A DNA stretch of 64,000 bases from an uncultured Desulfobacterales bacterium. GTDB lineage: Bacteria; Desulfobacterota; Desulfobacteria; Desulfobacterales; CAJINA01. The stretch lies in NCBI GenBank assembly GCA_964636125.1, contig CAZWPX010000023.1, positions 1,010 to 65,009 on the forward strand, in the 5' to 3' direction. The position numbers were made by a program, and so were the translations under genes. Below are positions 47,095 to 63,667 of the stretch, piece after piece; position 1 is the first letter of the stretch, and every line of letters begins with the position of its first letter. A model generated the notes under the pieces. It was given only the letters and a program-made list of their open reading frames with translations. It was not told the DNA's origin and did no database searches.

Positions 47095-47110
47095 TGGCAT
47101 GCACTTTGCT
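47095..47110 (+). promoter_or_regulatory. Putative sigma-54 (-24/-12) promoter upstream of the giant repeat protein
   Basis: TGGCATgcactTTGCT is a near-perfect match to TGGCAC-N5-TTGCW. It lies 80 nt upstream of the ATG at 47190, in a 480-bp AT-rich divergent region. Confidence 0.6.
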
Positions 47111-47189
47111 ATATACTAATGGGTCTTATACTATACCATACGTTTTAGAAGCATCTGGATTATCTCAACTTCTTTGGTAACGATTTTTC

Positions 47190-50100
47190 ATGAATAAATG
47201 GTTTAAAACCGCCTTGAAAACAATGTGTGATCGCCTGGGGGCAGGCACCCGCGGCGTACCTCGGCCGGTGCCGGGCAAAGCACCGAACGCCGGGCCCAGG
47301 CAGGATTCGTTTCCCGCAGGCATTCACTTCGAGGCCCTGGAACCCCGCCTGCTGCTTTCGGCCAGCGGAGACGGCATTGTTGCGGGTGTGGCCGTCCAGG
47401 CCGCTCCTTCGTCGGAACACGCTGCCATCGAAGCGGAAAACTTTCAATTCAACCAGTTGAACCAGTCGCTATCAACCAATCTCCTGCACACAACTGAAAT
47501 CAAGGAGAGCGGCCTTTCCCAGGGCAACTCAACTCCCCAAGGGAGCAATCCGGTATCCCATCCTGCGGACGCCACCACGACAAACAATGAAAACCAACTG
47601 GTTTCGTCAATACCAGCAGAATCGGTTGACATCCTGACCAGTATAGAAAGCCATGTTCTGGATACGGTCCTCGAACGTTCTGAACTGGTGGTAATCGATG
47701 GGGGCATCCAGGACACCGATACGCTGATAAATGATCTTTTGGCTGATCGAGACGATGGCCGTACGATAGAGGTTGTGATTATAGACCCGGAACAGGACGG
47801 TTTTGAACAGGTCAGTGACCTGCTGGCCACGCGCCAGGGGCTGGATGCGGTTCATTTTGTCTCCCACGGAACGGATCGCGGTGTAAAGCTGGGTGACACG
47901 TGGCTCTATCCGGGTAATCTCGATGACTATGCGGGTGATATCGCCGGATGGAAAGATTCCCTGGCGGCGGAAGCGGATCTACTTTTTTATGGTTGTGATC
48001 TGGCCGCCGGCGAAGAGGGACAGGCCTTGCTCGCTTCTTTGGGCGAATTGACCGGTGCGGACGTTACAGCAAGCGATGATGACACCGGCCATGCGCTTTT
48101 AGGTGGAGACTGGGATCTGGAATACCGGGCAGGCGATCTCGAGACCGCTGTTGCATTCAGCGCAGAACTACAGCATCACTGGGACGGACTCCTGGCGCCC
48201 CCGACTCTCGACCTGGATGTAAACAACAGCTCAGGCGCAGGAGGTAACGATTATCAGCTCACGTATACGGAGGGAGACGTTGCCACAGCCATTGCCGACA
48301 CCGACTCCGATGTTGCCGATGCAGATTCCACCACCTTTGATCACGTGACGCTTTCAGTGAGCGGGTTGTTGGATGGCAACGCCGAGGAGATGGTGCTCGA
48401 CGGAGACACTTTTGCGCTGTCCACGGCGGTTGCAGGTCAGAACACCAGTGGTCTTAAGTACACGGTAACGGTAACAGCGGTACCGGGATCGGGCACGGCC
48501 ACGATGACGATCACCAAGCAGGGCGGTGGGACGTTTACCGAGGTCGAGACCGAAGCACTGATCGAAGAGATTAAATATCGTCATGCCGACGACAACCCGA
48601 GCGACGGCAATCGTACGATCGACATGACGGTCAACGACGGATCAGTCGACAGTGCGGCGGCGCGAACGACGATCAACGTCGATCCGGTCAACGATGCACC
48701 GACCCTGACCGTGTTTTCAGCCCCAATCAAAACGTCGTCCCAAGATGAAACGGTGACCATCACGTTTGGCGACTTGACGACTCAGGGTGATGAGGCAGAT
48801 GTGGACGGCACAGTGGATGCGTTCATCGTCAAGGCGGTATCGAGCGGCACACTGTTGATCGGCGCATCTAAGGGCTCTGCCGCAGCTTGGGCGGCCGGAA
48901 CCAACGACACAATCAGTGGTTTGGATAAAGGGTTCTGGACGCCAGTCAGCGGTGCTACGGGTACGCTAAATGCCTTTACGATGGTTGTCGAGGACAACTC
49001 GGGAGCCGAATCGGCCACCCCAGTTCAGGCGCAGGTATCGGTCACGGCCAATAATGTACCGACGCTGACGGCGTTTGCGGCTCCCATCGATACGACGGCC
49101 GAGGACACACAGGTAGATATCACGTTTGCCGAACTGGTGGCCCAGGGTGATGAGGCGGATGTTGACGGTACGGTGGACGGTTTTGTGGTCAAGGCGGTCA
49201 CGAGTGGCACGCTTTTAATTGGTACGGATGCGGGTAGTGCAACGATCTGGGCAGCGGGCAGCAACGATACAATCGATGCGGCAAACAATGCTTACTGGAC
49301 GCCGGATAGTGATGCGAACGGGACGCTGAATGCTTTTACAGCTGTGGCCTTGGACAACTCGGGAGCCGAATCAGCCACTCCGGTTCAGGCGCAGATAACG
49401 GTGACCGCGGTCAACGATGCGCCCACCGCGACGAACCTGAGTGCCCCGGAGAGCTACACCGAGGACACGGCGCTCAATCTGACCGACATCGTGGTCACTG
49501 ATGTGGACAGTGCCACTGTCACGGTGACCCTGACCTTGTCGGATCCGGCGGCCGGCTCCCTGAGCACCGGCACATCCGGTGCGGTGACCTCGACCTTTGC
49601 GGCCGGGGTGTGGACCGCCTCGGGCGCCCTTGCCGATGTCAACACCCTGCTGGCCGGCGTCACCTTCACCCCGGCGATCAACTACAACAGCAACTTTAAC
49701 ATCGCCACCGGCGTCTCTGACGGTGCGGCCCCGGCGATCACCGGCACCAAGGTCATGACCGGCGCCGCGGTCAACGATGCGCCCACCGCGACGAACCTGA
49801 GTGCCCCGGAGAGCTACACCGAGGACACGGCGCTCAATCTGACCGACATCGTGGTCACTGATGTGGACAGTGCCACTGTCACGGTGACCCTGACCTTGTC
49901 GGATCCGGCGGCCGGCTCCCTGAGCACCGGCACATCCGGTGCGGTGACCTCGACCTTTGCGGCCGGGGTGTGGACCGCCTCGGGCGCCCTTGCCGATGTC
50001 AACACCCTGCTGGCCGGCGTCACCTTCACCCCGGCGATCAACTACAACAGCAACTTTAACATCGCCACCGGCGTCTCTGACGGTGCGGCCCCGGCGATCA

Positions 50101-51311
50101 CCGGCACCAAGGTCATGACCGGCGCCGCGGTCAACGATGCGCCCACCGCGACGAACCTGAGTGCCCCGGAGAGCTACACCGAGGACACGGCGCTCAATCT
50201 GACCGACATCGTGGTCACTGATGTGGACAGTGCCACTGTCACGGTGACCCTGACCTTGTCGGATCCGGCGGCCGGCTCCCTGAGCACCGGCACATCCGGT
50301 GCGGTGACCTCGACCTTTGCGGCCGGGGTGTGGACCGCCTCGGGCGCCCTTGCCGATGTCAACACCCTGCTGGCCGGCGTCACCTTCACCCCAACCGGGG
50401 GCTACGCCGGTGACTTTACCATCGCCACAAGTGCGAACGACGGCACGGCACCGGTGGTGACGGGAGTAAAAAATGTGTCCCTGGCAGCCGCTGCCGATCC
50501 AACGCCGCCGACGCTCCCTGCGGAAGACAATGATCCAGATCCGGTAACTCCGCCCGAGCCCGATCCAGAGACACCTGAAGACGAATCCGCACCCGCGGAC
50601 GTCGCAGAAGAGGCTCCTGCCGAGGCCGAAGCCGAGGCCTTGAATGAAGATGATTCGGGTGATACCGTAACGGCGGTTCCACCGACAGCCGCCGGAGCCG
50701 TGTCTTCACAACAGCGGCTTGCCTCGAACACGCTGCGTGGATTTATACAACGGTCCCTCCGGGGCCTGAGCCTTGAACAGGTTGCGGAGATCGACCTCAA
50801 AGAACTCCGGGAAATGACGGCCGAGACCCAACCGGCCTGGTCTGTTGCCCAGACCCGGGCAGCATCAATGACCTTTGGTACCCGGCTGACTGATTTGGGC
50901 ATTCGGACAGTTCTCGCATTCGATTTCCTGGAAAACTCGCTGGACGGGCTCCAACAAGAAGCAGAGGAAGAGATCGCGCTCAACCAGGTGGTTGCAAGTT
51001 CCGCCATTGCCGTAACGACAGGCCTGTCCGTGGGGTATGTGGCCTGGCTGCTGCGAAGCGGCGTGCTGCTCAGTTCTTTGCTGTCTTCCATGCCGGCCTG
51101 GCGGATTCTGGATCCGTTGCCTGTGCTTGCAGGAAAACTGGACGATTTCGAGGAGACGGACGAAGAATCCCTGGAGACCATCATCGAGCGGCCGTCGCCG
51201 CCTTCCGCCGATGACGACCCGAATGATGCATCTGCCTCTGTGGACGTTGCGGACGAAGTCGTGAAGGACGTGAAAGACGTGAAAGACGTGAAAGACGTGA
51301 AGGAAACGTAA
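47190..51311 (+). CDS. Giant repeat protein: N-terminal LEPR-XLL motif, DUF4347, cadherin-like repeats, acidic/Pro-rich linker, C-terminal TM segment
   Basis: FEALEPRLLLSA lies at 47328..47363. The DUF4347-like block runs ELVVIDGGIQD...DAVHFVSHG...LLFYGCDLAAGEEGQALL...GADVTASDDDTGH..LGGDWDLEY. Repeats of ~120 aa are bounded by VNDAPT. The segment SAIAVTTGLSVGYVAWLLRSGVLLSSLLSSMPAW is hydrophobic. No RTX GGxGxD array was seen. Confidence 0.9.
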   Translation: MNKWFKTALKTMCDRLGAGTRGVPRPVPGKAPNAGPRQDSFPAGIHFEALEPRLLLSASGDGIVAGVAVQAAPSSEHAAIEAENFQFNQLNQSLSTNLLHTTEIKESGLSQGNSTPQGSNPVSHPADATTTNNENQLVSSIPAESVDILTSIESHVLDTVLERSELVVIDGGIQDTDTLINDLLADRDDGRTIEVVIIDPEQDGFEQVSDLLATRQGLDAVHFVSHGTDRGVKLGDTWLYPGNLDDYAGDIAGWKDSLAAEADLLFYGCDLAAGEEGQALLASLGELTGADVTASDDDTGHALLGGDWDLEYRAGDLETAVAFSAELQHHWDGLLAPPTLDLDVNNSSGAGGNDYQLTYTEGDVATAIADTDSDVADADSTTFDHVTLSVSGLLDGNAEEMVLDGDTFALSTAVAGQNTSGLKYTVTVTAVPGSGTATMTITKQGGGTFTEVETEALIEEIKYRHADDNPSDGNRTIDMTVNDGSVDSAAARTTINVDPVNDAPTLTVFSAPIKTSSQDETVTITFGDLTTQGDEADVDGTVDAFIVKAVSSGTLLIGASKGSAAAWAAGTNDTISGLDKGFWTPVSGATGTLNAFTMVVEDNSGAESATPVQAQVSVTANNVPTLTAFAAPIDTTAEDTQVDITFAELVAQGDEADVDGTVDGFVVKAVTSGTLLIGTDAGSATIWAAGSNDTIDAANNAYWTPDSDANGTLNAFTAVALDNSGAESATPVQAQITVTAVNDAPTATNLSAPESYTEDTALNLTDIVVTDVDSATVTVTLTLSDPAAGSLSTGTSGAVTSTFAAGVWTASGALADVNTLLAGVTFTPAINYNSNFNIATGVSDGAAPAITGTKVMTGAAVNDAPTATNLSAPESYTEDTALNLTDIVVTDVDSATVTVTLTLSDPAAGSLSTGTSGAVTSTFAAGVWTASGALADVNTLLAGVTFTPAINYNSNFNIATGVSDGAAPAITGTKVMTGAAVNDAPTATNLSAPESYTEDTALNLTDIVVTDVDSATVTVTLTLSDPAAGSLSTGTSGAVTSTFAAGVWTASGALADVNTLLAGVTFTPTGGYAGDFTIATSANDGTAPVVTGVKNVSLAAAADPTPPTLPAEDNDPDPVTPPEPDPETPEDESAPADVAEEAPAEAEAEALNEDDSGDTVTAVPPTAAGAVSSQQRLASNTLRGFIQRSLRGLSLEQVAEIDLKELREMTAETQPAWSVAQTRAASMTFGTRLTDLGIRTVLAFDFLENSLDGLQQEAEEEIALNQVVASSAIAVTTGLSVGYVAWLLRSGVLLSSLLSSMPAWRILDPLPVLAGKLDDFEETDEESLETIIERPSPPSADDDPNDASASVDVADEVVKDVKDVKDVKDVKET
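49405..50392 (+). repeat. 2.7 copies of a 100%-identical 360-bp (120-aa) tandem repeat
   Basis: A line-by-line comparison shows 49405-49764 equals 49765-50124, which equals 50125-50392 (a partial third unit). Two older, diverged ~120-aa units precede it (~48700-49400). Confidence 0.95.
51261..51305 (+). repeat. 9-bp microsatellite (gtgaaRgac)x5 encoding (VKD)n at the C-terminus of the giant protein
   Basis: gtgaaggac gtgaaagac gtgaaagac gtgaaagac gtgaaggaa. Confidence 0.9.
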
Positions 51312-51314
51312 TTT

Positions 51315-54239
51315 ATGGGCAGGTTGAACGTCAAATTCCGCGTGGTTGCAGGCATGGTCGGTCTGGTGATCAGCCTCATCTTTCTGGCCCTCTATCTCGG
51401 CATCATTCCGGACCGGATCGGCGCGGTGCGAAAAGGACGCACGTCCCTCGCCGAAGCCCTTGCGGTACACAGCGCGGCCCTGGTGATGACGTCCGACTTT
51501 CAGCGCCTGAAAGCCGATCTGGACCTGATTTCAAAAAGAAATCCCGGTCTGCTTTCCCTTGCCCTGCGACGGGCAGATGGCCGCAGCACGATTTCGATCG
51601 GCGATCACGACGGCCAGTGGCAACCCATGCAAGAAAACTTCACGAAAGCCAACCAGATCCGGGTCCCCATATCCGACGGCAAGCAAAACTGGGGGCAGCT
51701 GGAGCTGCGATTCAATCCCCTGCAGGACCAGGGGCTCAAGGGAATCCTCCAAACACCATGGGTCCAGATCGGGCTGTTTCTCGGGATAGGATGCTTTGTC
51801 ACCTTTTACCTGTATCTGGGCAGAGTGCTTCGCCAACTGGACCCCTCCCAGGCCATCCCCGGCAGGGTGCGCGCCGCCCTGGACACCATGGCAGAGGGGT
51901 TGCTGGTCGTTGACCCGAAGGAACAAATCGTGCTCGCCAACAAGTCTTTCGCCGACCTGTTTCAAAGATCACCGGATAAGTTTCTGGGTCACAAGGCCGG
52001 AGAACTGCCCTGGATCGACACGGAGGGGAATAAGATAGAAAAAGAAAACCGCCCGTGGATCCAGGCCCTGAAACAGGGGAAGCTTCAGAGGAAGCAAATG
52101 TTGCGGCTGCAGGTTTCGGCCGACGAGTGGCGGACCTTCAATGTCAACTGCGCGCCGGTATTGGGTTCTGCGGAAAAGCCTGCGGGGGTACTCATCAGCT
52201 TCGACGATGTAACCCAACTCGAGAAAAAAGAGATCGAACTTCGCAAATCCAAGGAAGAAGCCGAAACCGCCAACCAGGCAAAGAGTGTGTTCCTGGCCAG
52301 CATGAGCCACGAAATCCGCACACCCATGAATTCCATTCTCGGTTTCACGGAGATCCTCAAGCGCGGCTATGCCCGCAGCAAAGAAGAGACCCGCCGACAC
52401 CTCAATACCATTCATTCCAGCGGGAAAAACCTGCTGGCCCTGATCAATGACATTCTGGACCTGTCGAAAGTAGAGTCCGGCCGCATTGAGGTGGAAAAAA
52501 CCTGGGACGAGCCCCATCGGATTGCCCAGGAGGTCCTTAAGACTCTGAAAGTCCAATCGGAAGAAAAAGGACTTTATCTCCGATTCAATGCGGAGAGTGC
52601 GCTGCCGCAAAAAATCGAGACCGATCCGACGCGTTTCCGGCAGATTATTTTCAACCTGGTGGGAAACGCCATCAAGTTTACGGAAACAGGCGGTGTGACG
52701 GTCGGCCTGCGCTTTAAGAACAACCGCAGAAGGCCCCTTTTGATTGTCGACATCACCGACACCGGCATTGGAATCCCGAGTGAGAAGATCGGCAGTATTT
52801 TCGACCCCTTCACCCAGGCGGATTCTTCGATAACCCGCCATTTCGGCGGAACGGGTCTCGGCCTTTCCATCAGTCGAAAATTTGCCCGACTGCTGGGCGG
52901 AGATATCCGGGTATCCAGTCAGCCGGATAAGGGCAGCCGGTTCAGGGTTATCCTGGCTACGGGAGACACGACCTCGATTCCTTTTCTCCAACCCGAGGAA
53001 GTGGCCTTGACCCTGGAAGAGACCGCTAAGGCCAAACCTGACCGGTGGCGGCTGAACAGGTCACGCGTCCTGGTGGTGGAAGACGGCGTTGAAACCCGTG
53101 AACTCCTCCGGCTGTTGCTCGTCCAGGCGGGAGTAGACGTGTACGAGGCGGAAAACGGGCTGGAGGGTGTCAGAAAAACCACCACCGAACCCTACGACGT
53201 CATCCTGATGGATGTAAACATGCCGGTCATGGACGGCTTTGCCGCGGCCGGGAAAATGCGGCAGAACGGGGTGAAGTCACCGATCATCGCCATGACCGCC
53301 AACGCCATGAAAGGCTCTGAGCAGGAATGTCTGGCGGCTGGATACTCGGGGTACCTCCCCAAGCCCATCGATATCGACAAGCTCATGCAGATGATGGCGG
53401 ATCTCGTGGGCGGAGACCAGGTCAAGGAAATGGACGATGCGTCCCCCGGCATTCCCGCAATGCCGGAAATCGCTTCCGCGGAAAAGCAAGCAGCACCGCC
53501 GCATCCCCTCGTATCCAGCCTGCCGATCAGCGACCCGGAGTTTCAGAAAATTATTATCCGATTTGAATCCCAGCTTCGCGACAAGCTGAAATCCGCGGTC
53601 CGGGCCCGGGAGCGGGGTGACCTTGCCGAATCGGCTGCCTTCGCTCACTGGCTCAAGGGAGCGGGTGGTACCGTGGGCTTCGCTGAATTTACCGAACCGG
53701 CCCGACAACTTGAACAGCTGGTAAATGAAGGGGCCGATGTATCTGAAATGACCGCGGCATGGAAAGCTATTCGCCGGCTGGCCATCCGCCTTGCTGACAC
53801 TATAGCTGACCTGGCGATATCTGCGGCTACCGGGACCGGAGCAGCAGCATCGCCGACTCCGTCGGAAGCCCCTTCCTCTGCCCACACCGCAGGCACCGCT
53901 GTGACACCTCTGGTTTCCCGCTACGCAGAGCTCCCGGAATTTCAGCCGATTATTCACCATTTCATCGAAACGCTCGATGAAAACCTGTCAAAAATGGAAC
54001 TGGCCTATGTGCAGGAAGATTGGAAACAGCTGGAATCCCTGTCGCACTGGTTGAAAGGGTCAGGTGGTACGGTGGGTTTTGATGCCTTCACAAAACCTGC
54101 AGCGGAGCTCGAAAAATTCGCCAAGGCGCAACAGGCGGACCAGGCCGGAGGAATGCTGGATAAGCTAAAGCGGCTGAAAAACGCAGCCCTGCACCCGGAT
54201 GCAGGTGGACACGGCACAGAGCCGGCATCAATCCTTTAA
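51315..54239 (+). CDS. Hybrid sensor kinase: TM-periplasmic loop-TM, PAS, HisKA, HATPase, REC, 2x HPt
   Basis: It starts 3 nt after the giant gene's stop. The H-box is LASMSHEIRTPMNSILGF, the G-boxes are DTGIGI and GTGLGLSISRKF, and the receiver is VLVVEDG...ILMDVNMPVMDG. Two HPt motifs are present: HWLKGAGGTVGF and HWLKGSGGTVGF. Confidence 0.9.
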   Translation: MGRLNVKFRVVAGMVGLVISLIFLALYLGIIPDRIGAVRKGRTSLAEALAVHSAALVMTSDFQRLKADLDLISKRNPGLLSLALRRADGRSTISIGDHDGQWQPMQENFTKANQIRVPISDGKQNWGQLELRFNPLQDQGLKGILQTPWVQIGLFLGIGCFVTFYLYLGRVLRQLDPSQAIPGRVRAALDTMAEGLLVVDPKEQIVLANKSFADLFQRSPDKFLGHKAGELPWIDTEGNKIEKENRPWIQALKQGKLQRKQMLRLQVSADEWRTFNVNCAPVLGSAEKPAGVLISFDDVTQLEKKEIELRKSKEEAETANQAKSVFLASMSHEIRTPMNSILGFTEILKRGYARSKEETRRHLNTIHSSGKNLLALINDILDLSKVESGRIEVEKTWDEPHRIAQEVLKTLKVQSEEKGLYLRFNAESALPQKIETDPTRFRQIIFNLVGNAIKFTETGGVTVGLRFKNNRRRPLLIVDITDTGIGIPSEKIGSIFDPFTQADSSITRHFGGTGLGLSISRKFARLLGGDIRVSSQPDKGSRFRVILATGDTTSIPFLQPEEVALTLEETAKAKPDRWRLNRSRVLVVEDGVETRELLRLLLVQAGVDVYEAENGLEGVRKTTTEPYDVILMDVNMPVMDGFAAAGKMRQNGVKSPIIAMTANAMKGSEQECLAAGYSGYLPKPIDIDKLMQMMADLVGGDQVKEMDDASPGIPAMPEIASAEKQAAPPHPLVSSLPISDPEFQKIIIRFESQLRDKLKSAVRARERGDLAESAAFAHWLKGAGGTVGFAEFTEPARQLEQLVNEGADVSEMTAAWKAIRRLAIRLADTIADLAISAATGTGAAASPTPSEAPSSAHTAGTAVTPLVSRYAELPEFQPIIHHFIETLDENLSKMELAYVQEDWKQLESLSHWLKGSGGTVGFDAFTKPAAELEKFAKAQQADQAGGMLDKLKRLKNAALHPDAGGHGTEPASIL

Positions 54240-55494: not shown

Positions 55495-57312
55495 ATGAAC
55501 GAACTGCAGCAAACCGAAGGGCCTTTCACCAGGGTTCTCACTCGGGTACTTGCCAGGCAGTGCCGACAGGTGCGGGCGGCCGGCGGCGCAATGCTGCAAC
55601 CCGTCGAAGAGAAACGCCTGCTCCTCCTTGCGGCTTTTCCGCAATCAGACACCCAAAACGGGCTTCCCAAATGGCTCTCCCCTGCCCTGAACACCTGCCT
55701 GGAGGTCCTGTCCAGCGGAAAGGCGGCGATTGTGCCGGAATCCCCGCAGCAGGGGGCCGGCGGACAGACCGGGAGCCGGATCCTTGTCATTCCGATTCAA
55801 AAAAAGAACAATGTCCGGGCAGTGGCTGCATTTCTCGTCCCCGAGCAAAACCCCCGGAGGCTGGCGGTTATAGAAAAGAGGCTGGCCACCACCTCCTTTC
55901 TACTGAACCACTGCGAACTGCAACTGACCCTGGAAAAACACCGGAAGGCGATCGATCGCCTCTCCCTCGCGCTGGGTGTCATTTCAGTGTGCAACCAATC
56001 CAGCCACTTCACGAGCACCGCCATGGCCTTGTGCAACGAGCTTGCCGAAAAATTAAGATGCCACCGTGTCAGCCTCGGCGTTCTGGAAGGCCGCTACGTC
56101 CGCGTCCGCGCCATGAGCCGGACCGACACGTTTCACCGGGAGATGAAGCTGACCCAGGACATCGAGGCAGCCATGGAAGAGTGTCTGGACCAGGACCTGG
56201 AAATCATTCGCCCGGCGGCCGCAGATGCCGTCTACGTCAGCCGCGCAGCCGGGCAGCTTTCCCAGCGGCATGGGCCATCCGCCGTGCTCTGCGTGCCGGT
56301 CCGGATAAACGGCGGCGTGGCCGCCGTCATCACCCTGGAGCGATCTTCGGAGCGGCCGTTTACAAGCCTGGAAGAGATCGAGGCCGTCAGGCTGGCTTGC
56401 GACCTGTGCGCCCCGCGGCTGATGGACCTGCGGGAGAATGCGCGGTGGTTCGGCGCCCGCATGGCCGCAGCGGTTCGAAAAAAAGCAGGGACGATTTTTG
56501 GACCGCAACACACGGGATTGAAGCTGGGGGCCGTCCTCATTTTTCTCATCGCAGTGTTTCTTGTGTTCGCCAGGGGGGAGTACCGCGTCGGCGCCCCGTT
56601 TATCTTCGAGGCCTCGATTCAGCAAGCCGTCGTGGCCCCGTTTGACTCCTATATCAAAAACGTTCACGTGGATCCCAGCGACGCGGTAATCGCTGATCAA
56701 ACCCTATTGGGCGAGCTGGAGACTTCCGATTTGAGACTCGAACAGGCCGCGCTCAAGGCACAGCAGCAGGGGCATCGGAAACAACGTGCAGCCTCGATGC
56801 GCGACGGAAAAACGGCCGAAGCCCAGATGGCCGAGGCTCAGATTGACAAGCTGGCGGCTGAAATCCGCCTCATCGAAGGCCATATCAAACAGGCCGCACT
56901 GGTGGCGCCGATTTCCGGGCGACTCGTTTCGGAAGATCTCAAACGGCGTCTGGGAGCGCCGGTGGAAGCGGGCGACATTCTCTTCGAAATCGCCCGCATC
57001 GAATTACTGAGGGCCGAGCTTTACGTGCCGGAAGATTCGATTGCGCTGGTGAATATCGGTCAGGCCGGTGAATTGGCCGCCGTCGGCCATCCGGATCGGA
57101 AAATTCGGTTTGTGGTGGAACGCATCACGCCCCTCGCCGAGGTAGTCAACCAGGTCAATTCGTTCCGGGTGCGGGCCCGTTTGCACGACAGGCCGAAATG
57201 GATGCGGCCGGGCATGGAAGGCCTTGCCCGGATCGATGTAGGGAAAAAACGCTATGTGTGGATCTGGACCCATCGGTTGACCGACTGGCTCAGGATGAAG
57301 CTTTGGCTTTAA
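55495..57312 (+). CDS. GAF-GAF-TM-HlyD fusion (membrane fusion protein 2 with a cytoplasmic sensor module)
   Basis: About 330 cytoplasmic aa carry two GAF-like units (…ALCNELAEKLRCHRVSLGVLEG…VLCVPVRINGGVAAVITLER…). One TM follows (LGAVLIFLIAVFLVFA), then a HlyD coiled coil and VAPISGRLVSEDL. A TTG at 55486 overlapping the upstream stop is an alternative start. Confidence 0.85.
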   Translation: MNELQQTEGPFTRVLTRVLARQCRQVRAAGGAMLQPVEEKRLLLLAAFPQSDTQNGLPKWLSPALNTCLEVLSSGKAAIVPESPQQGAGGQTGSRILVIPIQKKNNVRAVAAFLVPEQNPRRLAVIEKRLATTSFLLNHCELQLTLEKHRKAIDRLSLALGVISVCNQSSHFTSTAMALCNELAEKLRCHRVSLGVLEGRYVRVRAMSRTDTFHREMKLTQDIEAAMEECLDQDLEIIRPAAADAVYVSRAAGQLSQRHGPSAVLCVPVRINGGVAAVITLERSSERPFTSLEEIEAVRLACDLCAPRLMDLRENARWFGARMAAAVRKKAGTIFGPQHTGLKLGAVLIFLIAVFLVFARGEYRVGAPFIFEASIQQAVVAPFDSYIKNVHVDPSDAVIADQTLLGELETSDLRLEQAALKAQQQGHRKQRAASMRDGKTAEAQMAEAQIDKLAAEIRLIEGHIKQAALVAPISGRLVSEDLKRRLGAPVEAGDILFEIARIELLRAELYVPEDSIALVNIGQAGELAAVGHPDRKIRFVVERITPLAEVVNQVNSFRVRARLHDRPKWMRPGMEGLARIDVGKKRYVWIWTHRLTDWLRMKLWL

Positions 57313-57382
57313 CTCAATTGCCGTCAGGCTCCGCAAAAGACCTGTTCAATAAAACTAAGAATGCACCACTTTTAAAGGTAGG

Positions 57383-59566
57383 TTGACGGTGACCGCAACA
57401 CGCCCGACATTTATCGAATCCTGGTACCGCGTGGCCAATTTGTGCCCGAAGCTGCTCCCGGCGGTGAACGTGCACCGCCAGCATTTCCGGGGCGTCCAGT
57501 GGTACGTTCTCCAGAACCCGGCCAACAATGAATATTTCCGTCTCAGCCACGGGGCCTATCACTTCGCCGCGATGCTCGACGGTCGCCTCACCGTGGACCG
57601 GGTATGGCGGACGTGCATGGACGCATTCGGCGACGAGGCGCCGACCCAGGGCGAAGTCGTCGATCTGCTTACCAGGCTCTATGCGGCCAACCTGCTCCAG
57701 GGCGATGTGGCCCCGGACGTGGAAGCGCTGTTTCAGCGGCATCAGAAGCGCGCGTGGCGGGAAATTAAAGGATTTTTTCGCAATTTCCTTTTCATCCGGA
57801 TTCCCCTGTGGGATCCGGATCGATTCCTGGAAAGATGGGCCCCTGTTTTCGGAAAATTCTTCACGGTCCATGGCCTTTTCCTCTGGGTCGGTATCATGTT
57901 AGCCGGGTTGTGGGCGGTCGGCGGACACTTCGGAGACCTGACCCGGCAGGCCGCGGGTGTTTTGAACCCGAAAAACCTGCCCCTGCTGTACGCCGCGCTC
58001 GTCATCGTCAAAGTGTTTCACGAAATGGCCCATGCGTTTGCCTGCAAACAGTTCGGGATGCGGGCGGGAACCGGGGGCGAGGTGCACCGGATGGGGGTGA
58101 CGTTCCTCGTATTCGCACCGCTGCCCTACGTAGAGGCGTCCAGTGCCTGGGCCCTTAGGGACAAATGGCAGCGGATCGTCGTCGGTGCCGCCGGCATGCT
58201 GGTGGAACTGGCGATCGCTGCGATTGCAGGCATTCTCTGGGTCCGGACCGCCGAAGGGGCCACCGTACATGCCATCGCCTACAACGTGATGTTTGTCGCC
58301 AGTGTGTCCACGCTGCTCTTCAACGGAAACCCGTTCCTGCGATACGATGCCTATTACATCCTGCTGGATCTCCTCGAAATTCCCAACCTCGATTCCCGGT
58401 CCAAAGCCTACCTTGCCTTTCTGGCCAAACGTAATCTGTGGAACCTCAAACAGGTCCATGATCCCAGCCACACGCCGGGAGAACGGGGGTGGCTCGTATT
58501 TTACGCCCTGACCGCCATGGGTATCCGTGTGGCCGTGGCAATAGCGATTGTGCTGTTTCTCGGCAGCCAATTTTTTCTGATCGGGGCGGTGGTTGCGGTC
58601 TTCATGGCTGCAACCTGGATTTTCCTTCCCCTGGGAAACTTGCTGCGCTATCTGGCCATCAGCCCCGAGCTTGCCCGGATCAGACCCCGGGCGGTTGTCA
58701 CCAGCGCAGCCGCAGCCGCGGTCCTTCTCGGGGCCGTCGGCCTCGTTCCCATGCCGGAGCGCTTTCGCATCGAGGGTGTGGTGGAGCCGATCCGCTACGC
58801 GGTCATCCACATGAAAGCCGACGGATTCGTCGACGGGTTCCTCGATTCCGGGAAAAAGACCGGTCCGAACGGCCTCCGCCTGCTTACCGCGGTCTCCCCG
58901 ATTCTGGAAACCCGGCGCGATCAGCTGCATGCCGAACGCCGCCGGCTCCAGGTGCGGCGAAAACACGCCCAGGCCCGTGAGACGGCGGCGGTACAGATTA
59001 TCGCAGAAAAAATCGCCGCCCTGGAAGAAAAAATCGCACGCAACCGCCGGGAGATGGCGGATCTGAACCTGCAAGCACCCATTCAGGGCACCTGGGTGGC
59101 CCCGAACATTGACCGGCTCCGGGGGGTGTACCTGAAGCGGGGTCGACATGTCGGGGTGGTCGCAGATCTGGACGCCCTGAGAATCCGAGCCGTTGCCGGC
59201 CAGACAGTGGCGGCAGAGCTTATTCGGGATGCCGGATCCGCTGTCGAGATCAGAGTCAAAGGCAACCCGAGTGCGACCTACGACGGCCGAATCGAGACGA
59301 TCATTCCGGCGGGACAGGAACGGCTGCCGTCTGCCGCCCTCGGCTATGCAGCGGGGGGCTCGACCCAAACGGCCCTGGATGACCCGGAGGGCCGGCAGGC
59401 CTCCGAACCGTTTTTTGAAATCCTGGTGGTTCCGGATATTCCCGAAGGAAGGCGGCTGATGCCGGGGCAGAGCACGGTGCTGCGGTTTGACACCGCCGCG
59501 AAACCACTGCTGGTACAGGCATGGAAAACCATTTTGCAACTTTTTCAGAGGAGGTTTAAAGCCTAA
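57383..59566 (+). CDS. PqqD/RRE-like domain + M50 (site-2-protease-like) membrane metalloprotease + HlyD adaptor, single polypeptide
   Basis: The N-terminus (WYVLQNPANNEYFRLSHGAYHFAAMLDGRLTVDRVWRTCMDAFGDEAPTQGEVVDLLTRLYAANLL) fits the PqqD-like peptide-binding pattern. HEMAH lies at 58019..58033 within a polytopic region. The C-terminal coiled coil plus LQAPIQGTWVAP is HlyD-like. The start is TTG 57383 or GTG 57389. Confidence 0.85.
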   Translation: MTVTATRPTFIESWYRVANLCPKLLPAVNVHRQHFRGVQWYVLQNPANNEYFRLSHGAYHFAAMLDGRLTVDRVWRTCMDAFGDEAPTQGEVVDLLTRLYAANLLQGDVAPDVEALFQRHQKRAWREIKGFFRNFLFIRIPLWDPDRFLERWAPVFGKFFTVHGLFLWVGIMLAGLWAVGGHFGDLTRQAAGVLNPKNLPLLYAALVIVKVFHEMAHAFACKQFGMRAGTGGEVHRMGVTFLVFAPLPYVEASSAWALRDKWQRIVVGAAGMLVELAIAAIAGILWVRTAEGATVHAIAYNVMFVASVSTLLFNGNPFLRYDAYYILLDLLEIPNLDSRSKAYLAFLAKRNLWNLKQVHDPSHTPGERGWLVFYALTAMGIRVAVAIAIVLFLGSQFFLIGAVVAVFMAATWIFLPLGNLLRYLAISPELARIRPRAVVTSAAAAAVLLGAVGLVPMPERFRIEGVVEPIRYAVIHMKADGFVDGFLDSGKKTGPNGLRLLTAVSPILETRRDQLHAERRRLQVRRKHAQARETAAVQIIAEKIAALEEKIARNRREMADLNLQAPIQGTWVAPNIDRLRGVYLKRGRHVGVVADLDALRIRAVAGQTVAAELIRDAGSAVEIRVKGNPSATYDGRIETIIPAGQERLPSAALGYAAGGSTQTALDDPEGRQASEPFFEILVVPDIPEGRRLMPGQSTVLRFDTAAKPLLVQAWKTILQLFQRRFKA

Positions 59567-59567
59567 C

Positions 59568-61556
59568 GTGATCCAGGTACCGAGCATAAGCTGGCGGATG
59601 CTTTCTCAGGAGCCCTCCCGGGTGGAAATTCCCCGAGGCCTGGACAGAGCGTGGCATCGGGCCGCCGGTGCCGCCGGGAGTGTTTCCCTTCGAACAAAAA
59701 GATTTATCCGCCGGGCGGAGGGTATCGTTTCCATGGACAAGCTCTTTGCGCACCTATCCGACAAAGAGTTGAGTAAAATAATCCCGCCCCTGCGGGATCG
59801 ATTTCGCCTTGGCCGGGACACAGCCGAAGATCAAAACCGGGCCTTTGCCATCGTCCGGGAAGTCGCCGGGAGAACGATCGGCATGCGCCCCTTTACGGTC
59901 CAAGTGGCCTGCGGGCTGGCAATGGAATCCGGCTGCATTGCGGAAATGGCCACCGGTGAGGGGAAAACCCTGGCCGCAACCATGCCCGCCGTTCTGGCGG
60001 GCTGGCGCAACCGGGGATGCCACGTGGTGACGGCCAATGAATACCTGGCCGCGCGGGATGCCGGTTGGATGGCGCCTGTTTACCGGTTCTGCGGATTGAC
60101 GGTCGGATGGGTGGCAAACACCATGGGCCCGGAGCAACGGCGGCGGGCCTACGACGCTCACATCACTTACTGCACAAGCAAGGAGATCGCAGCCGATTTC
60201 CTGCGCGACCGTCTTACCCTGGGCCCCATCCGGGGACTTTCTGCAGCGCTTCTGGCGAAACTGGCCGGACGCGGCCCCGACCGGATCAACGGCCTGGTTC
60301 AAAGCAGCCTGGGGTGTGCCATTATAGACGAAGCCGACGCGGTGCTCGTGGACGAAGCGGTCACACCGCTGATCATTTCAGGTTCCGGGCAGAACCCGGA
60401 CCATGCACAAGCCATTGCCGAAGCCGCTCGTCTGGCCGCGAAGCTTGCGCCGGAAAAGGACTACCGGGTAGATCGGCGATATCACGAAATCACCCTGACC
60501 GCAGCCGGAGAGGCCCGGATGGCCGGGATGGCCGAATCCCTTGGCGGCCTTTGGAGAATTTCCCGGCACCGTGAAGAACTCGTCGTTCAAGCGATCACTG
60601 CCCGGGAATTTTTTGTTCGGGACAAGCAGTATGTCGTCGACAATCAGACGGTGGTCATCATCGATGAATTCTCAGGGCGGCTCATGCCCGACAGGACCTG
60701 GCGTGACGGTCTCCACCAGGCGATCGAGGCAAAAGAGGATCTCGAGATTCATCTGCCCAGGGAAACCCTGGCCCGGATCAGCTTCCAGCGTTTTTTTCGT
60801 CTTTACGGGAAGCTGTCCGGAATGACGGGAACCGCGGCAGAGATTCGAAATGAATTCTGGCAAATTTACCGTCTTCCGGTGGTCGTCATCCCGCCCCGGC
60901 GCGCCTGTCAACGGTCCCTGCGACCGGATCGCATATTTTCAAATAAAGATGCGAAATGGAGGGCGGTCATCGATGAAATCCGCAGCGCGCACGAAATCGG
61001 GCGGCCGGTCCTGGTGGGGACCCGCAGCGTGGCAGCCAGCGAGTCTCTTGGCCGGCAGTTAACCGTCGAAAAGCTGGATCACGAGGTCCTCAATGCCGTC
61101 CGGCATGACGCCGAGGCGAGGATCATCGCCGACGCCGGCCGAAGCGGGCGCATTACCGTCGCCACGAACATGGCCGGGAGAGGAACCGATATCCGCCTGG
61201 GCCCCAATGTAGCCGAGCTGGGGGGACTGCATGTGGTCGCCACCGAGCTTCACGAAACCCGCCGGATCGACCGGCAATTATACGGCCGGTGCGCCCGCCA
61301 GGGCGATCCCGGCAGCGCCCGGGCTTTTGTGAGCCTGGATGACGAATTGCTGCAGCAGCACGCACCTCCGGTCTGGAAAAAAACGGGGTCCGGCACTGGA
61401 GACGGAGGCCGGGAAATCACTTCTGTCTTTTCCCGCCGACGGATCGAACGCGCTCAGCGCCGTGCTGAGCGGGCCGCTTTTCACCGGCGCAGGGAAGTGC
61501 TTCACACAGACCACTGGCTTGACGAACACCTGGGATTTGCGCTTAAAGAAATCTAG
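59568..61556 (+). CDS. SecA-like ATPase, C-terminally truncated paralogue (NBD1-PPXD-NBD2 + first scaffold helix only)
   Basis: It is collinear with E. coli SecA. EMATGEGKTLAA is the Walker A motif (59955-69). Other matching motifs are VVTANEYLAARD, IIDEADAVLVDEAVTPLIISG, RTWRDGLHQAIEAKE, FFRLYGKLSGMTGTA, ATNMAGRGTDI, GGLHVVATELHETRRIDRQLYGRCARQGDPGS. It ends ~40 aa into the scaffold helix (about 650-660 aa, against ~900 for SecA). Start is GTG 59568 or ATG 59598; the track start at 59487 overlaps the previous gene. Confidence 0.9.
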   Translation: MIQVPSISWRMLSQEPSRVEIPRGLDRAWHRAAGAAGSVSLRTKRFIRRAEGIVSMDKLFAHLSDKELSKIIPPLRDRFRLGRDTAEDQNRAFAIVREVAGRTIGMRPFTVQVACGLAMESGCIAEMATGEGKTLAATMPAVLAGWRNRGCHVVTANEYLAARDAGWMAPVYRFCGLTVGWVANTMGPEQRRRAYDAHITYCTSKEIAADFLRDRLTLGPIRGLSAALLAKLAGRGPDRINGLVQSSLGCAIIDEADAVLVDEAVTPLIISGSGQNPDHAQAIAEAARLAAKLAPEKDYRVDRRYHEITLTAAGEARMAGMAESLGGLWRISRHREELVVQAITAREFFVRDKQYVVDNQTVVIIDEFSGRLMPDRTWRDGLHQAIEAKEDLEIHLPRETLARISFQRFFRLYGKLSGMTGTAAEIRNEFWQIYRLPVVVIPPRRACQRSLRPDRIFSNKDAKWRAVIDEIRSAHEIGRPVLVGTRSVAASESLGRQLTVEKLDHEVLNAVRHDAEARIIADAGRSGRITVATNMAGRGTDIRLGPNVAELGGLHVVATELHETRRIDRQLYGRCARQGDPGSARAFVSLDDELLQQHAPPVWKKTGSGTGDGGREITSVFSRRRIERAQRRAERAAFHRRREVLHTDHWLDEHLGFALKEI

Positions 61557-61600
61557 ATTTTAAACACTCACTTTATGGCCCTATTGAAAGGTCGGAGATC

Positions 61601-63667
61601 ATGATTAAACGCTATGGTATATGGGTTGCCGCTGTTCTTTCGATTTTCATCACCATTTCCGTTGCCGGGGGGGAGACCTGCCAACCGATCCTGAACATCC
61701 TGAAAAGCCAGGAATGGAAGCATCGCGACACCAGGGGGGAGATCCATCTCGGCAAGGTCGCGACCCTGCTATATCCCGCCTATACGGTCGCAGCAACCGA
61801 CCGTTACCGGCCGCTCCTCGAGCAGTTGTCCGCGGCCCTGAAAACGCCGGTCAGAAAAGAATACCGGGTCGTTTTGAAGGGATATACAGATTCCCTCGGT
61901 TCACTGGTGGTCAACCAGCGCATCTCCCTGGAACGCGCCCAGGACCTGAAAAAATTGCTGACATCGGATCCATCCATGGCCCTCGACGCCAAAAGAATCC
62001 AAGTAGAGGGCCTTGGGGAGGCCGACCCGGTGGCCTCCAACCAGACGCTTGAGGGGCGGAACCAAAATCGCCGTGTTGAAATTCACATTTACGGCAATGT
62101 GGGAGAGGACGTACGAACGGTCGCTACGGCACCGCCCGCCCCCGTCCCTGTAGCCATGCAAAAGGGAAAACCGGTTATCGCAGGTGCTTTATCGGATAAA
62201 TCTACGTTGCCGTTGTCAATACCGGGGGCACAGACACCACCGGGGCCGGAGACCGTTCGCCTGTCCCTTTTCGATGCCATCCGCCATGGATTGGAAAAAA
62301 ACCTGGAGATTCGGGTGGTCGCCTTTACCCCGCAGCAGGCGCAAGAGGGCATTGCGGATGCGGAATCAGTCTTTGATCCCGAAATTTTCACGGAGGGAAC
62401 CTTCCAGCGGGATCCGAATCTGCAATCGAGCGTCACCCGGGTCGTCATGGAAGATGACAGCCTCCTTCAGACGGGAATTCGAAAGCCCCTTGGCACCGGC
62501 GGCAGCGTGTCCGGCGCCCTGGCAATGAATTACGGGAATCTGATCAACGCCGAGTTCGATCGAACCTACCGGTACACCTTCGCCCCGACCTTTGAAATCA
62601 GGCAACCGCTGCTGAAAAATATCGGCGGCCGGGAAGAAAAGGCCGCCATCAAGATCGCCAACCATCAAATGGGCATTTCCAAAGAGGCGTTTCGTCGGAA
62701 GGTAATCGACATTGCCACCCGGATCTCCAGAGCCTACTGGCGGCTCTACCTGCACCGGGACTATGTGTTGATCGACCGGCAGAATTTCGAAATGGCCGAG
62801 GAGGTCTACCGCCGGGAAACCGTCCGGGTCAAAGAAGGCCTTTCGCAACAGCTTGATGTCGCGCGGGCCCGAAGCAATGCCGAAAGCCGGCGGGGAAACC
62901 TGATTAAATCGAAAGAGCGGTTAAAGGTGGGCACGGACCAGTTAAAGCTCTTGATCAACTGGTCGAATCTGAACATCGACTCGCAGGTAAATATCTTACC
63001 CATCGATGAACCGAGCGCAGAGCCCCTTGATGTGAGCGAAGAAGAAGTCGTTGAAAAAGCGTTCCAGCATCGCCCGGAACTGTTGCAGGCCAAACAGCGG
63101 GTGAGTATCAGTAAGGTCGAAGAAGACCTTTCGCAGCATCTGAAACTGCCGACCCTGGATGTATTCGGGCGGTATGCCGTCAGCGGGTACGGCAGGGAGT
63201 TCTCGGACGCGGTTGACGATACGTCCGTCAACGATGAAGATGCCTGGGCCGCCGGCCTGAACTTTGAATATCCGATCGGCAATCGATCGGTAGTGGCCAA
63301 GGCCCGCATGAAAACGCTCGCGCGCCGTCAGTCGGAAGAACAGGTCGCCCGCCTGCGAAACCAGATCAAACAGGAAATCAAGGAGGTGCTCTCTGCGATT
63401 GTTTATGCCAAAGGTAGAATCGAGTCCACTCAAATAGCGATGGAATCCGCCCGGAGTGTGGTCGAAGGTGAATTCGTACGGTTCGAAATCGGTCAGACGA
63501 CCAATGTGGAACTTCTGCGGGCGCAGGACTCGCTGGCCGCCACCAGCCGCAGTTTCATACAAGCGATTGTGGATTACAATATTGCACTGGCCGAACTGAA
63601 AAGGGTCAAGGGCGAGCTGCACGAGGGGTTGTCGATCGATGAACTCGAAAAGCAAGCCGGAAACTGA
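61601..63667 (+). CDS. OmpA-like peptidoglycan-binding domain fused to a TolC-family outer-membrane channel
   Basis: It has a signal peptide. The OmpA_C pattern is VVLKGYTDSLGSLVVNQRISLERAQDL...GLGEADPVASNQTLEGRNQNRRVEIHIY. Two OEP repeats follow (LSLFDAIRHGLEKNLEI... and ...IVDYNIALAELKRVKGEL). Confidence 0.9.
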   Translation: MIKRYGIWVAAVLSIFITISVAGGETCQPILNILKSQEWKHRDTRGEIHLGKVATLLYPAYTVAATDRYRPLLEQLSAALKTPVRKEYRVVLKGYTDSLGSLVVNQRISLERAQDLKKLLTSDPSMALDAKRIQVEGLGEADPVASNQTLEGRNQNRRVEIHIYGNVGEDVRTVATAPPAPVPVAMQKGKPVIAGALSDKSTLPLSIPGAQTPPGPETVRLSLFDAIRHGLEKNLEIRVVAFTPQQAQEGIADAESVFDPEIFTEGTFQRDPNLQSSVTRVVMEDDSLLQTGIRKPLGTGGSVSGALAMNYGNLINAEFDRTYRYTFAPTFEIRQPLLKNIGGREEKAAIKIANHQMGISKEAFRRKVIDIATRISRAYWRLYLHRDYVLIDRQNFEMAEEVYRRETVRVKEGLSQQLDVARARSNAESRRGNLIKSKERLKVGTDQLKLLINWSNLNIDSQVNILPIDEPSAEPLDVSEEEVVEKAFQHRPELLQAKQRVSISKVEEDLSQHLKLPTLDVFGRYAVSGYGREFSDAVDDTSVNDEDAWAAGLNFEYPIGNRSVVAKARMKTLARRQSEEQVARLRNQIKQEIKEVLSAIVYAKGRIESTQIAMESARSVVEGEFVRFEIGQTTNVELLRAQDSLAATSRSFIQAIVDYNIALAELKRVKGELHEGLSIDELEKQAGN

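Follow-up and report, generated by a model that had tools for sequence, protein, structure and literature searches.

What drives an envelope apparatus made of periplasmic adaptors and a TolC-like channel if no pump is encoded with it, and what would such an apparatus carry? The question is raised by five genes at positions 54635-63667 (+ strand) of a 64,000-nucleotide stretch of DNA from an uncultured Desulfobacterales bacterium (contig CAZWPX010000023.1), which was analyzed at its full length and is called the window below. The genes encode three HlyD-type adaptors, a SecA-like ATPase and a TolC-like outer-membrane factor, and they lie downstream of the gene for a repeat protein of 1373 amino acids (aa) whose N-terminus carries the LEPR-XLL motif. 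To our knowledge, every adaptor/TolC machine is driven by an ATP-binding cassette (ABC), resistance-nodulation-division (RND) or major facilitator superfamily (MFS) transporter, and every use of SecA involves SecYEG. The first-pass annotation of the locus had proposed a pump-less adaptor/TolC machine linked to the LEPR-XLL protein, and this proposal is borne out by synteny that is conserved in several phyla. Gene neighborhoods provide strong support for a pump-less machine associated with LEPR-XLL proteins, and the finding is real and widespread and apparently has not been described. Judging from the gene content, the five genes probably encode one envelope-spanning apparatus dedicated to LEPR-XLL proteins, with export of the 1373-aa client to the cell surface as its most likely function.

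Gene organization and absence of a pump

Seven genes, all on the + strand, were accepted as real between 47190 and 63667. The first encodes the putative substrate, a giant surface-type LEPR-XLL protein of 1373 aa (47190-51311), and the second, which starts 4 nt past the end of the first, a hybrid sensor kinase (51315-54239) with two transmembrane (TM) helices, PAS, HisKA, HATPase and REC domains and two Hpt domains. A gap of 395 nt separates the kinase gene from the five-gene block, which opens with adaptor 1 (284 aa, 54635-55489), a plain HlyD protein composed of a signal or anchor sequence and an HlyD/RND_mfp fold. It is followed by adaptor 2 (GAF-HlyD; 608 aa, 55486-57312), in which a cytoplasmic GAF-type region and one TM helix precede a periplasmic HlyD part, and by adaptor 3 (M50-HlyD; 725-727 aa, 57383-59566), in which a PqqD-like domain of the RiPP recognition element (RRE) type, an M50 membrane domain and a C-terminal HlyD part are joined. 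The SecA-like ATPase (662 aa, 59568-61556) and the outer-membrane factor (688 aa, 61601-63667), with a signal sequence, an OmpA-like peptidoglycan-binding domain and a TolC-like OEP domain, complete the block. The open reading frame (ORF) of the SecA-like protein opens at 59487, and its likely start is the GTG at 59568, which is preceded by GAGGAGG and gives the length of most homologues, 662 aa. With this start the genes of the block are spaced by -4, 70, 1 and 44 nt, which bears out the tight operon that had been predicted.

All domain calls made earlier on the operon proteins held in searches with the Pfam and NCBIfam hidden Markov models (HMMs). HlyD_D23/HlyD_3 matches were found in all three adaptors, adaptor 1 additionally matched TIGR01730 (122 bits against a cutoff of 94.9), and the GAF domain of adaptor 2 was detected at E 3e-8. 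The outer-membrane factor matched OEP (7e-43) and OmpA (5e-13). In the relative from Desulfosarcina alkanivorans (locus L001:12009-14045; related loci are designated here by L numbers) the N-terminal module of the TolC-like protein is SPOR, as opposed to the OmpA-like module in the window (61601-63667); from this comparison, wall anchoring rather than the type of domain appears to be what is conserved.

As had been stated in the first-pass annotation, the window contains no transporter that could serve as a pump for these adaptors: a six-frame scan revealed no ABC signature, there was no ABC match in Pfam either, and neither an RND (ACR_tran) nor a 12-TM MFS pump was present among the window proteins. 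The window ends 333 nt past the stop codon of the OEP gene, and the end of the operon is seen only through relatives. In L007/L010 (72% identity), the most closely related sequence for which flanks exist, no pump gene was found downstream. Moreover, clustering of the flank ORFs of about 170 related loci yielded no recurrent ABC, RND or MFS family, and regular-expression and hydropathy scans of all flank ORFs detected only sporadic, non-recurrent polytopic ORFs and a single RND operon, in L004. Compared with type I secretion, the locus thus has the HlyD-family adaptor and the TolC-family outer-membrane factor, no accompanying ABC transporter gene (Walker A, LSGGQ), and no HemolysinCabind/RTX match in the 1373-aa protein that would correspond to a C-terminal client signal; the inner-membrane pump partner of RND or MFS tripartite efflux is likewise absent from the window. 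Because the inner-membrane transporter is absent, the system falls outside the definitions of both type I secretion and the RND, MFS or ABC tripartite pumps.

An ordinary tripartite efflux pump might nevertheless be imagined, with its ABC, RND or MFS part encoded elsewhere and the SecA-like gene as unrelated cargo, and by sequence the adaptors and the OEP protein are indeed unremarkable. We regard this explanation as very improbable, since two divergent clades have the SecA-like gene in the midst of their adaptor genes and no pump gene recurs in the flanks described above.

Conservation of the gene set

The genes of GAF-HlyD, M50-HlyD and the SecA-like protein are adjacent in about 150 loci, which belong to Desulfobacterota, Planctomycetota and Proteobacteria (a gammaproteobacterial metagenome-assembled genome, MAG, and cultured Alphaproteobacteria) or are untyped metagenome contigs. 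The scan was performed with one genome per species and returned at least 568 genomes with a relative of M50-HlyD, the best 80 of which were examined for synteny. In these 80 the three genes are adjacent, in the order GAF-HlyD, M50-HlyD, SecA-like, wherever the contig allows; in the two loci without a SecA-like match, the contig breaks off no more than 100 nt after the M50-HlyD stop codon. The set includes Desulfobacterales, an Acidobacteria-labelled MAG, Phycisphaerae, Sedimentisphaerales and Pirellulales, among others. The closest match over M50-HlyD (98%) is an uncultured Desulfobacterales MAG (L009), and the nearest relative with flanking sequence is the Olavius algarvensis Delta 4 symbiont (72%). 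In the loci compared, the GAF-HlyD gene is always directly 5' of the M50-HlyD gene. Adaptor 1 is syntenic in 40 loci; the plain adaptor and OEP genes lie on the same strand in Desulfobacterota and form a convergent pair right after the SecA-like gene in many Planctomycetota.

A second clade, consisting of 80 loci, was obtained from a metagenome scan seeded with a gammaproteobacterial member. Its gene order is GAF-HlyD, M50-HlyD, SecA-like, HlyD1, with the OEP gene mostly elsewhere. Where more than about 0.8 kb of downstream sequence is available, the SecA-like gene is missing only from L117 and L161. Synteny extends to the hybrid kinase gene, which accompanies the giant gene and the system in Desulfobacterota as well as in the distant locus L091.

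Linkage to LEPR-XLL proteins

The giant protein of the window belongs to the LEPR-XLL family, as had been read from its N-terminus: model NF012209 matches aa 46-59 with 23.5 bits against a cutoff of 17, over the motif HFEALEPRLLLSA. The N-terminal region of the protein is basic and is followed by the LEPR-XLL motif, by DUF4347 at aa 166-335 (E 1.6e-52 in Pfam) and by cadherin-like/tandem-95 repeats; a hydrophobic segment and an acidic tail form the C-terminus. Within its gene, a 360-nt tandem repeat is found in 2.7 copies that are 100% identical (49405-50392, +); the copy number was possibly collapsed in the assembly, and 1373 aa may therefore be a minimum length. Relatives of the giant are 2,000-3,350 aa long, and the alphaproteobacterial ones 4,000-13,000 aa.

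Alignment of the motif across phyla gave the nearly identical sequence Phi-F-E-x-L-E-P-R-L-L-L-S-A-D, located 10-87 residues from the protein start and mostly behind a basic stretch; the aligned N-termini have no hydrophobic core of the Sec type. The Pfam model of the planctomycete extracellular signal, PF07595, gave no match at E<=0.01; in its core, ExLExRxLL[SA], the motif is in accord with the published consensus. Judged by this core, the LEPR-XLL motif appears to be the counterpart of the planctomycete consensus RRLxxExLExRxLLA (Pfam PF07595), a motif which, as cited in PMC8567305, was proposed in 2004 as a novel export signal of planctomycete cell-surface proteins. Tuwongella immobilis has 52 genes with this motif, among them 8 of its 10 longest, and the expressed motif-bearing proteins fractionate with the envelope (PMC8567305).

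The association of such proteins with the system was observed in several groups. In Desulfobacterota, the gene 5' of the kinase gene shares the C-terminal region of the giant in every distinct kinase-bearing locus, and in the closest relatives its product contains DUF4347 and is about 2,000 aa long. In loci of the Planctomycetota type, large ORFs that start with F-E-x-L-E-P-R-L-L-L-[SN]-A flank the system, either upstream and divergent or downstream. Fifteen LEPR N-termini were located within 1.5 kb of the system in 58 such loci, as compared to 2 in the other 303 kb of flanking sequence, which corresponds to densities of 0.119 and 0.0066 per kb (18-fold; Fisher p=3.9e-7). A LEPR gene is adjacent in 14 of the 51 assessable loci of this type, and NF012209 confirmed the neighbors in L033, L035 and L045. 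The passenger regions of these planctomycetal proteins (Ig-like, CARDB, fn3, lectin, CAP, cadherin-like) show no relationship among themselves or to DUF4347, and only the motif is common to them. The expected co-occurrence with LEPR-XLL/DUF4347 proteins was therefore found in several phyla as far as LEPR-XLL is concerned, but DUF4347 is not a general partner. In the second clade, a LEPR/DUF4347 gene stands right after HlyD1 in 6 of 24 assessable loci, and several more stand after the SecA-like gene.

The linkage was also seen from the opposite side. A reverse search with the N-terminal 340 aa of the giant returned DUF4347 proteins of several phyla, nearly all of which begin with the motif, and in three of the six contigs examined the M50-adaptor set lies next to the giant gene: in L091, where a distant but complete system has a different gene order, in L092, from a gammaproteobacterium, and in L093. 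L089 and L094 show the giant-kinase arrangement of the window, and L090 has nothing of the system within 10 kb. Additionally, cultured Alphaproteobacteria were located by tblastn against plasmids. Their systems are on megaplasmids, and in all nine intact loci that were read the set is directly 3' of a giant gene on the same strand, which encodes 4,000-13,000 aa; among the products are those of 8,847 aa in Methylosinus sp. C49, 10,518 aa in Mesorhizobium ciceri R30, 12,918 and 12,737 aa at the two loci of Pseudosulfitobacter DSM 107133, 10,603 aa in Pontibrevibacter, 8,148 aa in Alisedimentitalea, 4,033 aa in Thalassospira marina and 4,195 aa in Azospirillum brasilense Sp7. The LEPR motif was read or is annotated by the Prokaryotic Genome Annotation Pipeline (PGAP) in six of these giants; the N-terminus was read directly in five, and PGAP names three "LEPR-XLL domain-containing protein". 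The motif of M. ciceri, HFEALEPRLLLSAD, is almost identical to that of the window, HFEALEPRLLLSAS.

The M50-HlyD protein

M50-HlyD, of about 725 aa, is highly conserved and defines a family with 5,213 cluster representatives at E<=1e-30. Peptidase_M50 scored 26.5 bits in the window protein (cutoff 27.2) and was matched by 46 of 52 homologues; PqqD (PF05402) scored 21.1 bits (cutoff 23.4) and was matched by 52 of 52 homologues at E<0.01, at best 7e-9. The protein has both motifs of a site-2 protease, that is, HExxH in a TM helix (HEMAH, 213-217) and NxxPxxxxD (NGNPxxxYD, 314-322), in a membrane domain of about 7-8 TM helices, and residues H213, E214, H217, N314, N316, P317 and D322 are invariant in the 52 homologues and in distant members that are 25-39% identical. 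Likewise, aa ~29-101 have the composition of a PqqD/RRE domain of the PF05402 type, i.e. about 70 aa that form a three-stranded sheet and three helices: in the AlphaFold2 model (predicted local distance difference test, pLDDT, 81), strands were predicted at 29-35, 38-45 and 50-54, and helices at 56-64, 71-85 and 89-101. The same model shows a bundle of long helices over residues 146-454 and a C-terminal adaptor with an alpha-hairpin, which superposes on MexA, MacA and AcrA. A Foldseek search with the whole model returned adaptor structures only, so that the assignment of the RRE and M50 folds rests on the HMMs, the conserved motifs and the secondary structure of the model.

These two domains bring to mind exporters and maturases of ribosomally synthesized and post-translationally modified peptides (RiPPs), in which case the RRE and the M50 leader peptidase would act on a small peptide, as in the daptide and epipeptide pathways, and the giant protein would be a bystander. 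Besides the PqqD-type RRE, the best NCBIfam match of the M50 region, the daptide intramembrane metalloprotease NF041824 (142 bits), and a match to the YydH/LiaK model NF058609 (36 bits) point in this direction. Both scores are far below the respective cutoffs of 300 and 225, however, no precursor peptide or modifying enzyme recurs in the roughly 170 loci, and the linkage to LEPR proteins is strong both statistically and phylogenetically; we therefore give a RiPP function hardly any credence.

The SecA-like ATPase

The SecA-like protein matched SecA_DEAD (3e-94), SecA_PP_bind (2e-26) and P-loop_SecA (1e-56), and its alignment covers residues 15-607 of the 841 residues of Bacillus subtilis SecA, which corroborates the truncated SecA paralogue that had been annotated. 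The nucleotide-binding domains NBD1 and NBD2 and the preprotein cross-linking domain (PPXD) are present, the scaffold helix breaks off after its first turns, and the wing domain, the two-helix finger and the C-terminal tail are missing. The motor motifs GEGKT/DEAD/GRGTD are intact. An insertion of about 20 aa (aa ~203-226) distinguishes NBD1 from that of B. subtilis SecA, and the Walker B box reads DEAD, not DEVD. The protein scored below the cutoffs of the housekeeping SecA models (620.9 bits against 814 for NF009538 and 611.7 against 800 for TIGR00963) and below those of all four SecA2 models (e.g. 551 against 1085 and 484 against 930), and no SecY-like gene was found in the window or in the related loci. 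We take the truncation to correspond to the "N68" fragment of Escherichia coli SecA. N68 is an active ATPase with a polypeptide clamp that cannot drive translocation through SecYEG. In cultured Alphaproteobacteria the SecA-like gene is plasmid-borne. The names given to it by NCBI vary between 'prepilin peptidase', 'DEAD/DEAH box helicase', 'translocase' and 'SecA' (L176:17222-19138, L181:23074-25098, L180:22186-24147 and L187:19848-21830), the first of which is a misannotation.

The DUF4347 domain and a possible retention-release function

DUF4347 (window 47685-48194) has a flavodoxin/caspase-like alpha/beta fold in a predicted model with pLDDT >90 for aa 160-335. The best PDB match of this model is Tce1/PA0256, a type VI secretion effector of Pseudomonas aeruginosa, followed by legumain and caspases. 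His226-Gly227 is nearly invariant and Cys269 invariant, and a dyad similar to that of the cysteine protease domain (CPD) of TcdB/MARTX was proposed for Tce1 (PMC13323088). His226-Gly227/Cys269 is the equivalent of that proposed dyad, and, according to the model, the giant protein may have a self-cleaving protease directly behind its leader, a possibility that bears on how the protein might be released.

Release is central to a second explanation, in which the system would be a retention-release module like LapA/LapG/LapD: the adhesin would be threaded C-terminus first, its LEPR segment would be held at the inner-membrane complex while the protein is displayed via the TolC-like pore, and M50 would cut on a GAF/kinase signal. 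The position of a conserved motif at the N-terminus of adhesin-like giants is consistent with this, as are the protease and the cyclic-nucleotide-type sensor (GAF) built into the adaptors, the GGDEF/EAL/HD proteins and hybrid kinase that recur nearby, the RTX-type C-termini of some LEPR-XLL proteins and the resemblance of DUF4347 to an autoprocessing cysteine protease. An exporter would still be required, however, and the only one linked is the present system; a SecA-type motor with a preprotein clamp is better suited to N-first threading; and the window protein has no RTX C-terminus, though it has a C-terminal hydrophobic segment. On balance we think it rather unlikely that the system serves for retention and release.

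Proposed mechanism

We prefer to read the five genes as a dedicated exporter of LEPR-XLL proteins. On the cytoplasmic side, the PqqD/RRE-type domain of M50-HlyD would bind the unstructured N-terminus with F-E-x-L-E-P-R-L-L-L-S-A. The SecA-like ATPase, having presumably kept the DEAD motor and the preprotein clamp and lost the parts that couple SecA to SecYEG, would grip the unfolded chain and thread it, N-terminus first, into an inner-membrane assembly of M50-HlyD and GAF-HlyD. The three HlyD-type adaptors would then form a periplasmic tunnel to the peptidoglycan-anchored TolC-like channel, the intramembrane M50 protease would remove or release the leader, and the GAF domains together with the co-transcribed hybrid kinase would gate export. 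The roles of the SecA-like protein as motor and of the M50 module as protease are plausible. The domain content, the lack of a pump, the synteny and the linkage to LEPR-XLL genes across phyla are observed; we infer the identity of the substrate, the binding of the motif by the RRE, the cleavage, the motor role, the direction of transport and the path across the inner membrane from sequence.

Several observations weigh against this interpretation. No recognizable protein-conducting channel is encoded in the operon, and we know of no M50 domain that conducts proteins. The PqqD and M50 scores of the window protein are just under the curated Pfam cutoffs. Only about 25-30% of the planctomycetal and second-clade loci have an adjacent LEPR gene, which, together with the 52 such genes in one planctomycete, implies that most putative clients are unlinked to the system. 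The Alisedimentitalea giant, as annotated, has no LEPR motif in its first 200 aa, and a LEPR-XLL protein of Vibrio has a C-terminal RTX/serralysin-type region, which is typical of classical type I secretion. Finally, there are relatives of the adaptor/M50/TolC set beside LEPR-XLL or DUF4347 giants in which the SecA-like gene is absent from the operon: L185 (T. marina pCSC3H3; order DUF3467, HlyD, M50-HlyD, adaptor, TolC), L184 (A. brasilense Sp7 p2; order TolC, adaptor, HlyD, M50-HlyD), L092, L093, L117 and L161. Neither the T. marina nor the A. brasilense Sp7 plasmid is among the matches listed (60 of 140 records) for the SecA-like query. The predicted synteny of SecA-like, M50-HlyD and LEPR-XLL genes is thus conserved across phyla, but the SecA-like gene is absent from some of the loci beside LEPR-XLL giants, so that the invariant partnership is that of LEPR-XLL with the M50-adaptor set. 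It follows that the SecA-like ATPase is not essential to the basic function of the family unless it is supplied in trans. As far as gene content tells, the ATPase is a near-universal, non-obligatory addition; in the SecA-less variants, either a motor would be supplied in trans, perhaps the housekeeping SecA, or the motor would be an add-on.

The SecA-less relatives also leave room for a route in two steps coupled to Sec. In such a route the LEPR region would be an unusual Sec signal, the protein would cross the inner membrane through SecYEG with the help of the housekeeping SecA or of the paralogue, M50 would act as leader or signal-peptide peptidase, and the adaptors and the TolC-like channel would perform only the step from the periplasm to the surface. 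This would agree with the need of the SecA-less variants for an energy source in trans and with the motor domain of the SecA-like protein, which is still 39-42% identical to that of canonical SecA. Degradation of signal peptides is a known activity of site-2 proteases such as RseP, and MacAB-TolC is able to accept a substrate from the periplasm. On the other hand, the parts of SecA in contact with SecY (scaffold, wing and two-helix finger) are lost in the truncated protein, and the equivalent N68 fragment is not competent in translocation; the LEPR N-termini have no hydrophobic core of the Sec type; and, with the RRE domain being cytoplasmic, recognition would precede translocation. A Sec-coupled route therefore seems unlikely to us, though it deserves to be kept in mind.

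If the system does work as a dedicated exporter independent of both SecYEG and ABC transporters, it would represent a new type of secretion system in Desulfobacterota, Planctomycetota and Alpha- and Gammaproteobacteria, with a SecA-derived motor uncoupled from SecYEG, an inner-membrane platform whose modules, an RRE-M50 protease and a GAF sensor, are fused to adaptors, and a TolC-like channel. We put this stronger claim forward tentatively, as somewhat short of an even chance.

Other genes in the window and in the related loci

About 80 nt 5' of the giant gene, a weak sigma-54-like -24/-12 element, TGGCAT-N5-TTTGCT (TGGCATGCACTTTGCT), is present at 47095-47110 (+). It has one mismatch, and, with 6 such sites in the window against 2.5 expected, it is not significant alone. 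Promoter and terminator scans at the start and the end of the operon were uninformative. A 112-aa ORF between the kinase and adaptor 1 genes (54242-54580) was rejected as a gene, being without a family match and without a counterpart in relatives.

Recurrent extras in the flanks of the related loci are two-component proteins, a DUF3467 protein and an 832-aa protein with beta-propeller and haem motifs. The DUF3467 protein, which is small (~95-135 aa) and cytoplasmic and is possibly a dedicated chaperone, was not found in the window; in most loci of Alphaproteobacteria its gene separates the giant gene from that of the first adaptor, and in 12 loci of Planctomycetota it lies between adaptor genes (e.g. 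L044:7665-8039, L176:12744-13064, L180:16793-17098, L185:17681-17977, L187:15457-15798 and L188:15572-15853). The 832-aa protein (L063:5516-8014 and eight other loci of Planctomycetota, nine in all) is divergent from GAF-HlyD and has a middle part similar to hydrazine synthase alpha, PD40 repeats and a CXXCH motif. A SapC-family protein is found in or next to the system at two roseobacter loci, L181:22260-23081 (PF07277, E 1e-72) and L178:1858-2655 (PGAP annotation only). In Desulfobacterota relatives, proteins of the cyclic-di-GMP type (REC-GGDEF-EAL, EAL, PAS-GGDEF-HD) recur between the giant or kinase gene and the system (L001:2887-4677, L006:3890-4527 and L094:6775-9216); none is encoded in the window.

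Besides kinases and housekeeping genes, the remainder of the window contains a polyunsaturated fatty acid (PUFA) synthase cluster and an Mrp-type antiporter. The PUFA-synthase (pfa-type) cluster, at 3978-22344 (+), encodes a KS-AT-ACPx3-KR-DH protein (2363 aa), an 872-aa ORF product without a Pfam match, a KS-KS-FabAx2 protein (2398 aa) and a PfaD-like enoyl reductase (546 aa). The Mrp/Mbh-type multisubunit cation/proton antiporter cluster is located at 26389-35056 (-), with a cyclic-nucleotide-binding protein at 33143-33628.

Significance

The full-text literature that was searched, with most subscription journals lying outside the search, contains no description of the SecA-like/M50-HlyD system and no dedicated machinery for the LEPR-XLL/Planc_extracel signal; within this scope, the claim that the system is undescribed stands. 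The system is the first concrete candidate for how LEPR-XLL proteins leave the cell. If the proposed function is true, it would be the missing export route for LEPR-XLL/RRLxxExLExRxLLA proteins, which include many of the largest bacterial proteins (up to ~13,000 aa), and adaptors and a TolC-like channel working with a SecA uncoupled from SecYEG and an adaptor-fused intramembrane protease would be a new entry among secretion systems. The putative clients are giant adhesin-like and enzyme-bearing surface proteins of Planctomycetota, sulfate reducers (including symbionts of gutless worms), rhizobia, Azospirillum, methanotrophs and roseobacters, and with so wide a range of hosts the system probably shapes attachment, biofilm formation and host association. 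Intact loci are available on plasmids of cultured, genetically tractable Alphaproteobacteria, for instance in A. brasilense Sp7 (p2, AMK58_RS22620-22640), M. ciceri R30 (LRP29_RS31435-31460), Methylosinus sp. C49 (GYH34_RS19180-19210), T. marina (CSC3H3_RS21280-21305) and Pseudosulfitobacter DSM 107133. A leader-guided exporter of very large unfolded proteins, if confirmed, would also be of biotechnological interest.

Comparison with known systems

Type I secretion systems (HlyB-HlyD-TolC; LapB-LapC-LapE) resemble the present system in their alpha-hairpin HlyD adaptor and TolC-family channel, in the giant, repeat-rich, adhesin-like clients encoded beside the machine and, as proposed here, in crossing the envelope in one step. 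In contrast to them, the present system has no ABC transporter, the linked ATPase being derived from SecA; it has three different adaptors, two of which are fused to cytoplasmic or membrane modules; and the conserved signal of its clients is N-terminal (LEPR-XLL) rather than C-terminal and of the RTX type. Type I systems with a peptidase-containing ABC transporter (PCAT) share with our proposal an N-terminal leader that is recognized and cut by a protease belonging to the exporter. The protease of PCATs is, however, a C39 cysteine peptidase on the ABC transporter, and the clients are small peptides, whereas here an intramembrane M50 protease with an RRE would be part of an adaptor and would act on clients of up to ~13,000 aa.

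In the LapA/LapG/LapD system, too, an N-terminal element of a giant adhesin meets the export channel, and a dedicated protease is under control of the second-messenger type. LapG is a periplasmic cysteine protease, LapD is a cyclic-di-GMP receptor and export is by a classical ABC type I system, whereas the M50 protease and the GAF sensor of the present system are both within adaptors. The SecA2 systems of Gram-positive bacteria and mycobacteria likewise have a second, dedicated SecA paralogue with special clients, often large surface glycoproteins or adhesins; SecA2 keeps the scaffold and wing regions and works with SecYEG or SecY2, in contrast to the present protein, which ends where the scaffold helix begins and whose linkage is with adaptors and TolC rather than with SecY. 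RiPP leader peptidases (the daptide HExxH protease, YydH/LiaK) and RseP have the same HExxH/NxxPxxxxD core and, for a short linear leader motif, a PqqD-type element, but they are not fused to adaptors or linked to a SecA-like protein and TolC, and they act on small peptides or anti-sigma factors. By analogy, the system would be closest in its working to a leader-cleaving type I system that follows the logic of PCATs and is built from different parts or, alternatively, to the retention and release of LapA by LapG and LapD.

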